Source: Mytilus edulis (taxonomy: Eukaryota). From it: 64,000 nucleotides of DNA. The notes under the pieces are model-generated. The model searched no databases and was not told where the DNA came from. It saw only the letters and a program-made list of their open reading frames with translations. The position numbers and the translations under genes are program-made. Shown here piece after piece: positions 49,811 through 55,800 of this stretch. Positions within the stretch are counted from its first letter, which is position 1; each line of letters begins with the position of its first letter. The DNA is taken from the NCBI RefSeq assembly GCF_963676685.1, contig NC_092352.1, positions 55,676,001-55,740,000 of the forward strand, in the 5' to 3' direction.

Positions 49811-52800
49811 TTATCTTGCAGCCATAGACACCTGCCAGACACGGATCAGATTGTCTGTGTAACCAGCAAATAGGGTTTGTCCGTCTGATGACCATGCTAA
49901 AGATATACACTGTGGAGCTTGTGCTTTGGAGCTTGCTGAAATGACTTCTTGTCTGAGCTCATCAACAACGATCTTTCCTTCAAGATCCTGTAAACAAAAT
50001 ATAATCATTAATACGATGAAAAAGAAAATATCTTTTTAGTACTCTAGTTTTGTAAATTTATCATAGAAGTTTACTTATATCCTTGATAATTAAAAAAAAC
50101 CCTTGTAAATGTATTTTTTGCGACATTCATTTTTCTTTTTTTGTAACAAATGCGTATGAAATTTCTCGTAATTTCTGGCTGAAAATTTTACATCAATTTT
50201 TTTTTTCTTCATTTGTTTAACATTTTGTTATGCCAGCTGGTCTTTTACAGCTTACTATATTCTATTGGTTTTTGCTCATTGCTGTAGTCAGTATGTTGCC
50301 CTTTAGTTGCTAACAGCATTTTTAATTGGTCACTGGTGGTTTCTACATGTACTTGTCCAATTAGCAACCATAACACATCTACTCATTTATATTTATAGTT
50401 AAGAAGAAGTTCATACAAGAAAGGTTTAAATCAGACACCCTCATATTTGCAGGATTTTTTCATTGCTGTCAAAAAATATGTGAAAATCTATAATAATTGG
50501 GTGCTCCAATATATCAAATCAGCTTAAGTTAACTTCACTTAACTTAGATGTTAGGGTTCTTGCTTAGGATTTTTGAAGGCGAGTCCAGGGACTCATCATT
50601 TTTAGCCATGACGAGTCCAACAGCAAGAAGAAAATATTTTATTGCAAGATAATGTAATATTTTAGTCTCCATTTCCTTACAGAGCAATGAAATAACATTT
50701 AATTAAGATAATTTTTAAACTTTTCCTATAAAATGATGATATTTGTGTTTTACTGTGTTCAGTTTATAAAATATTTTAATCTTGATGCATCTGTGGACTC
50801 ACCAGTTTTGGAAATTTAGTTTAACTAATATATCACTAAGTAAAGTTAACTTCAAACTTTTTTTTAAATGCTGATTCATTTTCTATTTAGATATATCTGT
50901 TTTCAAGTTTTTCACTTGTCTTGTTGCTTGCGGTCTCATTATTTAATCATCTTTATTTACATATTTCAAAATGTGTCAAGATTATAAATCATTGAATTAA
51001 TATACCTACCCATATTTTGATACTTGGACCGGTAGCAGCACAGAGCCAATATCTGTTTGGACTAAAGGTCAATGCATTAATAACATCACCACCGTCTAAT
51101 GTGTACAAGTGTTTGCCTTCATTCAGATCCCATAACATAGCTTGTCCGTCCTACAATACATCAATATGTACAATTAGATTTTTCTTCCAACATGAAATCA
51201 ATTTATCAAATATCAGAAATAGGTTGGTTTCTATTTAAAAACTTTAGAATAGTTTAGTGGGACTATTCTAATTTTCATATCCATTTGTATCTTAAGCTTC
51301 TAAAGTTGCCCTCATATTTGCAGGATTTTTTCATGATTTTTCAAATAATTGTGAAAAAATATAATCATTGGGCAACAAAAAATAATTTAATACTTTGTAT
51401 AAACCCCTAAAAGTGTTTTGCATACCTAACTCTATGCACATTTATGCTTTCAACTGATATATAGTTTATAGCAGGTTTTACACCAATTGGTAGTTTAAAA
51501 TCTCTTGATGTTCAAGACAAAATTAATACATTTTCATTCTTGTTTAGGCCAAAAAAAAATATATGTCTGTTTCCTGTTTCCCGACCGACCCTGACTTAAA
51601 CCCCCCAACCCTAGATCTTTTTATTCAAATCCGGAAAAAAATTGGTTCCGGTCCGATCCAGATCCGTATTTTACTATGCCCAAACAATCAAAATGGCTGC
51701 TCACAGCACAAATGTGCTACAATTAAGGTTTTAAAAATGTCAGCACTGGGAGGATTATTCAATTAAAGCTTCTTTAAAGGGATTAAATCATTTTGAGGTA
51801 CAGGACCCTAACCAAACATGACATTTAACCACCTGCAAAAAAAAAAAAAAAATCCCGACCTACCAACCCTGATTTATTTGCCTTGGAGGCAGGAAACAGA
51901 CATATTTTTTTTTGGCCTTATGGGAGTCCGAACAAATGGGGATTGTGTCCATTGTAAAATATAAATTCCCTAACAAGTTGAACTAGGTGATCACCTTAGC
52001 AAAATAATCTTTATGCAGGTAAGCACTTATAATATTAAACTTGATATAACTTAGTCATGGTATGATACGAAAAGACTGTTTGTGTTTTGTCCAAATTCTA
52101 AAGTTCTAAATTAAGCAACTCTAAAACAGCTAGTTGAAAACATGATTTTTTTCCCCTTGTTTTCAGAGTAATGATATATTTTTATTTTCTTATCAGCTAA
52201 CCGAAGTGCCCTCATATTTGCAGGATTTTTTCATGATTTTCAAATGATTGTGAAAAAGTATAATCATTGGGCATCACATGATAACTTTATATAGTATACC
52301 AACAATGGCCTAAAGTGTTCCGTTACTCTATTAAATCAAATGTATTAGATCAACTGACAGTGCACCCAATTTTACATTTTACAATAAATATGTTAGATTT
52401 AAAGTATTCTTTATTTCTATTCAATGTTTTGAATTTTAACCCTTTTTCAGATCAGGAATTTGCTAAATAATTTAAGCAAGACTTGATTATGTAATGTTTA
52501 TGATACATGTAGATTAAATGCAATTTCTCCTATAGATTTTTTTTTAGCTGTGATGCAAAATTCACCTTTGCAACCCAACTCAATATTTTTATCAAATTAA
52601 AGGACTCCATTTTGTTCTTTCATAGGGAGAACACTTGGTATTAGAAATTGTCTGGTAAAAATTTTACATTTTACAATAAATATGTTAGATTTAAAGTATT
52701 CTTTATTTCTATTCAATGTTTGGAATTTTAACCCTTTTTCAGATCAGGAATTTGCTAAATAATTTAAGCAAGACTTGATTATGTAATGTTTATGATACAT

Positions 52801-55800
52801 GTAGATTAAATGCAATTTCTCCTATAGATTTTTTTTTAGCTCTGTGATGCAAAATTCACCTTTGCAACCTAACTAATATTTTTATCAAATTAAAGGACTC
52901 CATTTTGTTCTTTCACAGGGAGAACACTTGGTATTAGAAATTGTCTGGTAAAGTGCAAACTATTACAATTTTTGCATCCATTTTTATCTTAAGTTTTCAC
53001 AGATACCCTCATATTTGCAGGATTTTTTCATTATATTTCAATTGATTGTGAAAAAATATAATCCTCGGGTATCATAATATCTTTATACATTCTGAAGTGT
53101 TTTTGTTCTGTACATGCTCTTGACTAATTTGGGCTTTCAACTATCAGTGTACTCCACTTTACAACCTTTATTGTTTTAAAATTAAATGTGTAGTTTATTT
53201 TTATTTTGTAGGTTTCAACCATTTTCAATTTCATGTTAGCATGATTATCTAATGAATGAAACAATATCAGAGAAGTAAAAGTTCATTTGCCAAACTGTGT
53301 TAATGATTATATTGAAGTGGTATATACAGCCTATAACCTAGACCACTTTAGCCAGGCTAATTAGTAAAAAAAACTTTTTGTTTTTCAAAACTTGTATGAC
53401 GCCCAACATTTTTTAACTCATCTGTGCAAATGTACACAGACATGGAAATTATTCTGAACTTTATTTTAGTGTGTAAACACTGTTGCTTGCTACAATCTCT
53501 TTCGGTGAGGCTTGTGTTTTAAGAAAAAAATTGAAATCTACATGCTTATTTTCTTGAACATAATGTCATCTAGCGGTTACTTAAACATGTTACCTCATAT
53601 AAATTAATAGTTTCATGAAAATCAATAGCTAATACATGTAATGTAATAATCATTGGTAACACAATCAAAAGTATCTGTATCTCATAACACTATATGATAT
53701 CTTAATTATAAGTATGAAAATTTCAATTATTCCTGATTTATTTATGTGGAAGTTGACCTAAGTTCGCAAAATTGATAGCACATTTGTGAAAAATACAACC
53801 CCTTGGAGTCAGGTCAGTGTTTTTTAAAATTCATTCACAATGTCATACAAACCTTTCCACCAGATGCACACAGAGAGCCATCAGGAGAAACAGTAACAGT
53901 ATTAAGGTAACCAGTATGTCCAATATGGTTGGTTTTTAGTTTACAGTTAGTCAAATTCCAAACCTGTAATACAAAAAAACCAACATTACTGTAGTGTAAT
54001 ACTAAGATCAGTTGTCTGGAATAAAGAAAACATAATATGTCCCTGTATTTCTATGTTTTCAAAAGGTCAAACACAATTGAAATTGGTAGCAATCTATAAA
54101 TTTTTGAAAACAAAATAAAAATGAATTTGAAACCAAAGCTTTTATGAAAAGTCTGTGATCAATATTTAAGATTTATTTGAAACTTCAACTTAATTAATGA
54201 ATGGAATTCTTACCTTAACATGTTTGTCCCATCCACATGAAACAATAATTGGATTGGCAGTATTTGGTGAAAATCTAACACAGGATACCCAATCACTATG
54301 GCCTTCATCCTGTAGATTAGTAAATTTAAAAGATTATTTCATATATCAGCCATTTTAAAATATAAACATTTATAAATCAGGCCATTATGTTACGATTTCA
54401 TTAGATACTATAGGTTTTGGCATCAAGTCAATTTAGGGCTTGAGTAACAGAGTTGGCAGCACCAAGGCCTCATTTTAAGAAATTTGTAAGTCAAGAGAAC
54501 ATTACTGCAGGGTTGCTTGTTTTACCTCATAATTTGAGTAGTTTCATGTTGATCAATAGCTAATACATGTATATTTCATAATCATTGGTAAAACAGAACA
54601 AGAGGACTGATGAGAGAATTCACTACAAATTTAGACATAACTTCACTCCATCATAAAATTACACATTACTAAGAGTACAACATTTTGGCTTGAAACACCA
54701 TATCCAGAATTTTGTTTTGTTGTTTTTAGAGTCTGAGTACAAATCCTTTTGGCCTATAAATATCACACTTGAAACTCTGAATATTACATTGTACCTTTCA
54801 TGCAAAAATAACATCTGAATGTGTCAATTATATCATAGACTTCAATATCAGATTATTGAATGCTGTGTGCGTGTACAAAGTAATTATTGTGTTAAGTACC
54901 TGAATGGTGTATTTACAGACACCAAGGGTATTCCACAGTTTGATAGATTTGTCTCTGGATCCAGAAACAATCTGTCTGTTGTCAGCAGAGAAAGCTACAC
55001 TGAGGACATCTTTGTCGTGGTTGTCAAACAAACGGGTTGTTGTTCCTCTAAAAAGTACCATAGTGAAAATTAATGCTACATCATTTTTACCTGTACATTG
55101 TATGTAGTATGGGAATGATATCAAACTCAAATATTAACAATGTGTTCACACTACACACACAAAAAAAGTTTCCAATTCAGAAATTAATGCAAGGTTTTTA
55201 ATAATGGGGAAAATGCAACACATTTTAAACGCAATAATTTTAACTCGCATTTGAAATATTTGATATGAATTAAACCGAATTTTTCTCAAAACCTTAAAAA
55301 TTAAAATCGCATTTTAAGTCTAAAATAACAAAAACGCAATAATAAATGCACCAATAGTTTCTGAATTTACAGTAGATGCAGTAAAAGATGTTATGCATTA
55401 GAGGTAATTTGACATTTATGGCATTTTTGTTCATTTAGTTTCTTATTGTACTACTTAAGCTTTGTCAAGTCAATTTTATGAAAACTTTGAAAGAACATTT
55501 AATCAGATAATCAAAAAGCCTTACGCTCCAAGATCCCACAAACGTAGAGTCTTGTCCCATGATCCAGACAAAGCAAACTGGCCATCAGATGACATGACTA
55601 CATCTGATACAAAGTGACCATGACCTCTTAAACATCTGAGTGGTAAACCATAATTTGTCTCGTCTCTGGTCAATTTCCACATAATCAAGGTCTTGTCTGA
55701 AAATAAGAATTGTTGAAATTCAAAAGAAGACAATGACTGGCTACATATATAATACATATATCCTGCCCTATAATTTGTTGTCAACCTTTATACAAACGTT

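Follow-up and report, generated by a model that had tools for sequence, protein, structure and literature searches.

The RACK1 locus and its four putative box C/D RNAs

The window analysed here, a stretch of 64,000 nt from Mytilus edulis, contains the gene for RACK1, and introns of this gene hold four copies of a likely box C/D RNA, all on the strand of their host (Table 1). Each copy keeps two blocks: UCCUGCAA, directly before box D (the guide), and UUCACA, always 6 nt past box C and 5, 5, 5, and 6 nt from D′ in the different copies (the putative helper). A 14-mer joining guide and box D occurs exactly four times in the window, always on the - strand (50441, 51312, 52212, and 53009), and there is one additional match with two mismatches; shuffles give a mean of 0.85, and 0/100 reach five. 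A preliminary description had located the family at 51305-53073, an interval that holds three of the copies and leaves out B4.

Table 1. Features of the RACK1 locus, in window coordinates (all on the - strand)
Feature	Position	Strand	Box C	Helper	Guide	Box D	Remarks
RACK1 host gene	49814..58801	-					Seven coding exons
RACK1 last coding exon	49814..49987	-					E 2e-33 to RACK1 chains
RACK1 exon 6	51010..51150	-					RNA reads and contigs show splicing straight to exons 5 and 7
RACK1 exon 5	53853..53963	-					5′ border of the intron with B1-B3
B1, SNORD96-type box C/D RNA	53003..53071	-	53059-53065 (AGGAUUA)	53047-53052	53015-53022	53009-53012	RACK1 intron 5
B2	52206..52273	-	52261-52267	52249-52254	52218-52225	52212-52215	RACK1 intron 5
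B3	51306..51374	-	51362-51368	51350-51355	51318-51325	51312-51315	RACK1 intron 5
B4	50435..50503	-	50491-50497	50479-50484, plus one extra pairing base	50447-50454	50441-50444	RACK1 intron 6

The boxes are UGAUUA and AUGA, with a U-A pair replacing G-C in the predicted kink-turn, and they are closed by terminal stems of 5-7 bp. Box C departs further from UGAUUA in B1 and in the assembly allele of B4, which has U in place of G at 50495 (the runs X24, X3, and X5 have G). The terminal stems keep 93% of their pairing, with changes on both sides at three of seven pairs, while the flanks are 30-65% alike, which shows the copies to be under selection. The alignment of the four copies confirms that both blocks are invariant, as first described (6/6 columns for UUCACA, 8/8 for the guide), whereas elsewhere invariant columns number 7/40 in the flanks and 1/13 in the linker, the pre-D′ stretch, and the D′-C′ loop taken together. 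The block around the helper is in fact longer than had been described: it is UUUUCACA, 8 nt, with two U more than UUCACA. Invariance in all runs over 26 nt. Long-RNA libraries are uninformative either way on small RNAs, and the five runs of this kind give almost zero cover of the copies (RNA contigs X15, X16, X18, and X20 cover none, and raw reads of X24 have a depth of 0-2). A neighbouring box C/D family, family A, also lies in RACK1; its box C′ is AUGAAA, without a U-run.

Relation to SNORD96

B1-B4 are very likely SNORD96-type guides of 5.8S G74 (in the numbering of the Rfam model; human G75). This identity and this target were already in the preliminary description, and the RACK1 host, the zebrafish precedent, and the 5.8S of the host genome support them. 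According to supplement files 4-5 of PMC7668251, zebrafish SNORD96 lies in a rack1 intron, has boxes GUGAUUU/AUGA and an 11-pair guide for the same G, and lacks UUCACA. The Mytilus copies share with SNORD96/U96 (RF00055) and with the zebrafish RNA the RACK1 intron host, the core of the D guide, and the D+5 target, and with the latter, which is expressed, also the variant boxes UGAUU/AUGA. They differ in that the D duplex has eight pairs against 11, the C-D′ spacer carries an abutting UUCACA, the copies number four, and RF00055 gives no score. Table S4 of PMC11014333 records a Gm at this 5.8S site for fly, human, Arabidopsis, and Xenopus, and lists G75 of yeast 5.8S as unmethylated.

With its gathering cut-off of 43 bits, RF00055 has no match in the window; in 50000-53500 it has none even at E ≤ 10, and there is none in this genome, where 51 candidates were scored. 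By host and target the copies are likely to be a SNORD96 counterpart and are filed as such, not as an Rfam member. Rfam as a whole likewise has no match in the window at cut-off, just weak ones to unrelated C/D families (E 0.13-7.6). A second, canonical long-guide copy was found in this genome neither by pattern (six matches: B2, B3, and four unrelated-looking ones) nor by RF00055, and the absence of a second G74 guide rests on that one pattern and that model.

Among metagenome RACK1 loci, the best 80 of 446 were kept, with 25 flagged as intron-bearing and three more having splice sites at exon 6; a model built on 13 copies was applied to the window and to 29 loci. Seven of the best 80 loci have a SNORD96-type copy, for a total of 11 copies (10 distinct), which look closely akin to one another. 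Scored against the 5.8S of M. edulis, these form 9-12 pairs starting at -1, and UUCACA is in 0/11. Two of them match RF00055 below the cut-off (32-33 bits), and one, in L046, has some other 6-nt complement at a distance of 3 nt. L011 and L013, the closest by protein among these 80, have no SNORD96-type copy. In the genome contig collection, RACK1 exon 6 matches 14 loci, of which the closest two are intron-less, and a 22-nt pattern has 0 matches; a RACK1 search of the viral contig collection found none. UUCACA is in no ortholog reached, be it the 11 distant copies or zebrafish, in a set without other bivalves.

Pairing with 5.8S rRNA

In 8/8 fetched loci holding a 5.8S gene, UGUGAA lies immediately 5′ of UUGCAGGA. 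The two targets are thus contiguous in this species' own 5.8S, as predicted earlier, which disposes of the refuting alternative that one guide matches in full. The guide is complementary to U72-A79, with eight Watson-Crick pairs (-3 to -10) and mismatches at -2 and -11, and places D+5 on G74, which is the top D+5 site for 4/4 copies when 18S, 5.8S, and 28S are scanned. UUCACA is complementary to U66-A71 and adjoins the guide duplex without a gap, with six pairs, or seven in B4, the copy correctly singled out at first as pairing one base further. Each copy hence has one defining feature of extra base-pairing, an element outside guide and boxes whose rRNA complement lies beside the guide duplex.

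By itself the 8-nt guide is not significant (equal score in 93/200 shuffled rRNA sets), so the 5.8S target rests on orthology. The guide complement is found just once in the 18.9-kb rDNA stretch, with no longer single-guide target, and U2 and U6 have no match to the guide and no better target. As to the abutment, among 5598 rRNA pseudo-targets, 136 (2.4%) have a complement of at least 6 nt in all four copies with a gap of ≤3 nt or an overlap of ≤2 nt, and 32 (0.6%) have exact abutment in all four, in a test devised after the fact on paralogs that are not independent draws. Covariation is absent, helper and 5.8S side being both invariant.

In isolated 5.8S, the helper site takes about 6 kcal/mol extra to open (8.0 versus 1.8), and naked-RNA energies consequently give no clear net gain from the helper. 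When the whole 5.8S is folded, U66-G69 pair with 106-109 at 0.93, and the Rfam consensus is yet another, looser structure. A local hairpin around G74, which ranks first when the piece is folded by itself, falls to about 7% in the whole 5.8S. With structures this different, the opening of a helix by the helper is a conjecture.

Alternative readings

A match to one 5.8S spot in two abutting pieces (8 + 6) suggests that the copies likely mark this spot for methylation. The observation is real and probably functional, and we consider it reasonably probable that the helper pairs with 5.8S and is selected for doing so. This is the best reading of UUCACA, given a chance of abutment of 0.6-2.4% and long-guide orthologs without the motif. 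The preliminary description, which had proposed it, missed a strong rival, an internal stem UUUUCA-UGAAAA predicted in 4/4 copies.

If that stem were the reason for the block, eight pairs alone would guide G74, UUUUCA would owe its conservation to a pairing partner, UGAAAA (box C′), and would match 5.8S by coincidence. When boxes C and D are kept open, 4/4 folds show the stem, and freeing UUUUCA costs 1.2-4.5 kcal/mol. The first three helper bases are >95% paired internally in B1-B3, and the first four are the predicted partner of box C′. Six invariant internal pairs span UUUUCA exactly, including the two U without a 5.8S match, and the stem starts where the invariant block starts. Two Arabidopsis sites are also assigned 8-pair guides (PMC8053127). 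Yet this leaves the invariant terminal CA unexplained and makes the abutting 5.8S match an accident of the low frequency given above. The two outer pairs of the stem break without compensation (3/8 cells). Moreover, AUGAAA is also the box C′ of family A, which has no U-run, and so the constancy of box C′ needs no stem. We regard the internal stem as the sole cause of the conservation as rather unlikely; stem and helper pairing can both hold.

It is quite improbable that these RNAs are SNORD96 copies that have weakened or taken on another role and have ceased to methylate G74, their blocks being kept for protein binding or for another RNA partner such as 28S UGUGAAGA, with which all eight invariant bases pair. 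Eight pairs with a mismatch at -2 fall below the zebrafish minimum, invariance runs past the duplex, and the 28S UGUGAAGA site has the lowest spacer duplex energies (-9.1 to -12.4). However, an 8-mer partner is present in 173/200 shuffled sets, D′+5 falls at the duplex end of that 28S site, and all eight guide bases are perfect in four diverged copies. Neither the rDNA stretch nor U2 and U6 offer a better target, and pattern and RF00055 searches of the genome found no other guide for the conserved G74 site.

It is very improbable that UUCACAAU is a D′ guide of the usual kind, directed at a 28S uridine (the equivalent of yeast U2891), in a two-target RNA abutting on 5.8S by chance. B1-B3 do form nine pairs there (-4 to -12, one G-U) in the D′+5 register, family A in the same gene likewise has UUGA as its D′ box, next to a guide of 12 pairs, and in fly three lineage-specific Nm lie no more than 10 nt from the spot (PMC11014333). 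But the match is equalled in 61/200 shuffled rRNA sets, B4, otherwise intact, loses register and pairing, bases -1 to -4 before D′ are variable, and Nm is absent at this uridine in the six-species table (rows 184-189, PMC11014333).

A proposed split guide and its precedents

In the reading we favour, the 8-pair D guide would direct the predicted ribose methylation of G74 and the helper would pair with the next six target bases. Boxes C and D would form a kink-turn with the U-A pair. Guide base -2, an A, does not pair with the target and could pair with the U after box C, so that A71 of the target would stay available to the helper's first U. In this arrangement the kink-turn stem and the helices of guide and helper would come together as a three-way junction that has a 5-nt linker. 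The helper may offset a duplex shorter than the 9-12 pairs of the orthologs and may aid the unfolding of the 5.8S segment, while in the free RNA it would be partly masked by its predicted pairing with box C′. As a whole, this account of four RACK1-intron SNORD96 counterparts with an 8-pair guide and a UUCACA helper is somewhat probable. That methylation of G74 depends strictly on the helper is doubtful. It is speculative, and unlikely, that the lineage remodelled an ancient guide, once a single stretch of 11 nt, so that it now has two arms (8 + 6) and a switch of its own, in which the rRNA target opens a helper hidden by box C′, target binding is coupled to C′/D′ assembly, and G74 methylation needs both arms.

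That snoRNAs with a short guide can gain extra pairing from their idle spacer is already known in yeast, human, and Arabidopsis, and no new mechanism is added here. Novelty was over-rated at first, as the layout is the one in which extra base-pairing has typically been published (PMC3116282; 45/104 Arabidopsis sites, PMC8053127). Examples given by van Nues et al. (2011, PMC3116282) include yeast snR75, snR76, snR70, snR13, and snR87 and, in human, U16 with 17 others; their text does not name U96 as a human case. The elements described there are conserved, 4-11 nt long, placed in the idle spacer, complementary to rRNA beside the guide duplex, and typical of short guides (the shortest yeast guides all have extra pairing, often in the idle spacer). 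The Mytilus element resembles them in length, place, complementarity, and short guide, and is invariant among its four paralogs. It differs in that it appears lineage-restricted and overlaps a predicted internal stem. Arabidopsis SnoR28 likewise joins a sub-minimal primary duplex to an extra pair (seven-pair guide and eight-pair extra pair at 25S G2396), and more than half of the Arabidopsis extra pairs are reported to adjoin the primary pair and sit in the other spacer (Wu 2021, PMC8053127). Site and family are different, and the Arabidopsis threshold of 7 nt for extra pairs is reached by B4 only. An 8-pair substrate was unmodified in vitro (PMC7229835), and zebrafish guides require at least nine pairs; extra pairing may also be neutral, as with yeast U18 (PMC5389607). 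A literature search found no publications that describe SNORD96 with a split or accessory guide, or that treat SNORD96 of bivalves.

The case shows how such guides evade annotation, with no Rfam match and a guide below common length cut-offs. If true, it would be a clean natural before-and-after for the origin of an accessory guide: host gene and target are the same and the rRNA is nearly invariant, but the guide is long and single in zebrafish and other animals and split here. It would then support the proposal by van Nues et al. that guide length is under weaker selection where there is extra pairing, and would provide a small construct for testing it.

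Copies and Host Gene

The region contains repeats of ~64 nt that on the minus strand have a box C/D layout: terminal stem, box C, UUGA (D′), AUGAAAA (C′), guide, and box D. The preliminary description was right in seeing four copies (B1–B4), although its range, 51305..53073, leaves B4 outside. They lie in introns of RACK1, whose last exon matches RACK1 chains at E 2e-33 and whose exon 6 is spliced straight to exons 5 and 7 in RNA reads and contigs.

Box C/D RNA candidates and their host gene (window coordinates)
Feature	Position	Strand	Description
B1	53003-53071	-	box C/D RNA candidate, RACK1 intron 5
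B2	52206-52273	-	box C/D RNA candidate, RACK1 intron 5
B3	51306-51374	-	box C/D RNA candidate, RACK1 intron 5
B4	50435-50503	-	box C/D RNA candidate, RACK1 intron 6
RACK1 host gene	58801 to 49814	-	seven coding exons
Second C/D family, two copies	54521-54591 and 53589-53659	-	RACK1 introns 3 and 5

Intron 5 (51151-53852, 2.7 kb) holds four snoRNA candidates, 156 nt to >2 kb from the 3′ splice site; L046, a RACK1-bearing locus from another source, likewise has two within one RACK1 intron. The second family has the same boxes as the B copies (UGAUUA/AUGA) and a D′ guide predicted to form 12 pairs at host 18S U164; its ortholog in locus L013 is identical in boxes and target. Two high-copy elements occupy RACK1 introns (window 51545-51927 and 50553-50815), with contig depth hundreds of times that of the flanks. 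In X3 and X5, two sources holding the related stretch, the 381-bp high-copy element is missing and 32 other letters stand there instead; the tandem duplication at window 52368-52952 (292–293 bp, 99% alike) is single-copy in both.

Comparison of the four sequences indicates that B1–B4 are under selection. The flanks are 30–65% alike, with 7/40 invariant columns, and within the copies a 26-nt run reaching from C′ into the 3′ stem is invariant, as is the block UUUUCACA. The terminal stem keeps 93% of its pairing, with both-side changes at 3/7 pairs; its score is reached by 36/500 shuffles, weak with four rows. The boxes are UGAUUA and AUGA, a U-A pair replacing the consensus G-C. Box C of B4 has U instead of G in this assembly (window 50495); since X24 (1 read), X3, and X5 carry the G, relatives probably have an intact B4. 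The U, a private allele or assembly error, would break the kink-turn G-A pair.

Predicted Target Site and Orthologs

A D+5 scan of host 18S, 5.8S, and 28S ranks 5.8S G74 (human G75) first for all four copies. The host 5.8S has 40 scored genomic copies at 138 bits, and the guide pairs with it by 8 Watson-Crick pairs (-3 to -10), with mismatches at -2 and -11. This match alone is not significant, being equalled in 93/200 shuffles, and the putative assignment to G74 rests on orthology. Table S4 of PMC11014333 gives the site as methylated in fly, human, Arabidopsis, and Xenopus.

The guide of human SNORD96 is longer than that of the copies here. Among the best 80 of 446 loci, RACK1 introns of other animals yielded 11 copies (10 distinct) in 7 loci, with canonical boxes and, scored against host 5.8S, 9–12 pairs beginning at -1. 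Two of the 11 score on the Rfam SNORD96 family RF00055, under the cut-off; B1–B4 had no RF00055 score in searches of the window and host genome, and pattern and RF00055 searches found no long-guide SNORD96 copy elsewhere in that genome. Zebrafish SNORD96 (boxes GUGAUUU/AUGA; PMC7668251) likewise lies in a rack1 intron and matches the same 5.8S site, but forms 11 pairs where the B copies form 8; zebrafish gnb2l1 introns are described as containing snoRNAs (PMC11880993). As the 11 outgroup copies resemble one clade, they and zebrafish represent about two lineages.

Five look-alikes in RACK1 introns of other animals (L046:2068-2133, L047:2929-2992, L029:2640-2703, L024:5052-5134, L054:1692-1761) carry C for G at guide position -6, their single guide difference, and with it match host 18S G558 over 9–11 pairs; their sequences suggest a possible paralog retargeted by a single substitution. 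A further RACK1-intron C/D RNA (L013:465-521, boxes GUGAUUA/AUGA) has a 12-pair D′ guide predicted for host 18S C307, and its spacer has AUAAGACA in common with zebrafish SNORD96.

Further observations come from other RACK1 loci and the host genome. L097 and L098, short contigs of two bacterial assemblies, carry spliced animal-like RACK1 cDNA (exon 6: 96%), likely contamination. L025:3332-3442 is a long near-perfect hairpin directly after RACK1, with weak miRNA-family scores. In the host genome, U6 genes form a tandem array with a period of ~733 bp (G000:C10:45057210-45092312), at least 48 of them with equal scores.

The UUCACA Block and Competing Explanations

UUCACA, between box C and D′, complements 5.8S U66-A71, with one more pair in B4. 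The proposal that block and guide read adjoining target is borne out: at all eight host 5.8S loci read, UGUGAA directly precedes UUGCAGGA, without a gap. The block covers the two target bases facing positions -1 and -2 of the long guides. Its spacing from box C is a constant 6 nt across the four copies, whereas that to D′ differs in B4, which points to an anchor at the C/D end. By chance, similar matches occur in 136/5598 pseudo-targets with slack and in 32/5598 with exact abutment. UUCACA is absent from zebrafish SNORD96, unlike B1–B4, and from 11/11 outgroup copies, one of which has a different 6-nt complement 3 nt away (scored against host 5.8S). Guide helix, UUCACA helix, and kink-turn stem would converge in a three-way junction, the bases following box C perhaps lengthening the kink-turn stem by two A-U pairs.

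The invariant block may have another reason, as UUUUCA may fold onto UGAAAA inside the snoRNA, possibly alongside the 5.8S pairing. With boxes C and D kept unpaired, this fold is predicted in all four copies, and it accounts for two invariant U without a 5.8S match; however, it leaves the final CA of UUCACA unexplained, and no compensating changes accompany the breaks in its outer pairs. Freeing UUCACA from it would cost 1.2–4.5 kcal/mol (boxes C, D unpaired). The computed duplex energy is -11.2 for 8 pairs, -15.9 for 11 pairs, and -4.6 for UUCACA alone (initiation included); unfolding of the target takes 1.8, or 8.0 once the UUCACA site is included, the predicted 5.8S helix being absent from the Rfam consensus structure. 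Such sums, which ignore proteins and nascent folding, suggest no clear net gain from UUCACA. The two readings are not separable from four paralogs, and both may hold.

A 28S uridine could be the target of a D′ guide with 9 pairs in B1–B3, but this match is at chance level (equalled in 61/200 shuffles) and lost in B4, and Table S4 of PMC11014333 does not have this uridine as a known methylation site. All eight invariant bases also find a partner in 28S, no more than chance would give (173/200 shuffles).

Relation to Extra Base-Pairing

Pairing of UUCACA with 5.8S would resemble the extra pairings of 4–11 nt beside the site, often in an idle spacer, described for 24 yeast and 18 human snoRNAs with 2–5-fold effects; the shortest guides all carry them, and U96 is missing from the list in the available part of that paper (van Nues et al. 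2011, PMC3116282). Extra pairs were reported at 45/104 sites, over half abutting, including one 7 + 8 case (Wu et al. 2021, PMC8053127). Modification was not seen with an 8-pair substrate (Yang et al. 2020, PMC7229835); extra pairing was required for snR13 and had no effect for U18 (van Nues and Watkins, PMC5389607). The accessible parts of PMC8522698, PMC6984369, PMC3177221, and PMC6770171 have little bearing here, and the literature searched yielded no report of a split SNORD96 guide.

On balance, the B copies are likely counterparts of SNORD96 in which the guide is shortened and probably joined by an accessory element. They would work as the extra base-pairing snoRNAs already described do, which makes the mechanism a known one; what would be new, to a modest extent, is a lineage-restricted splitting of one long guide.
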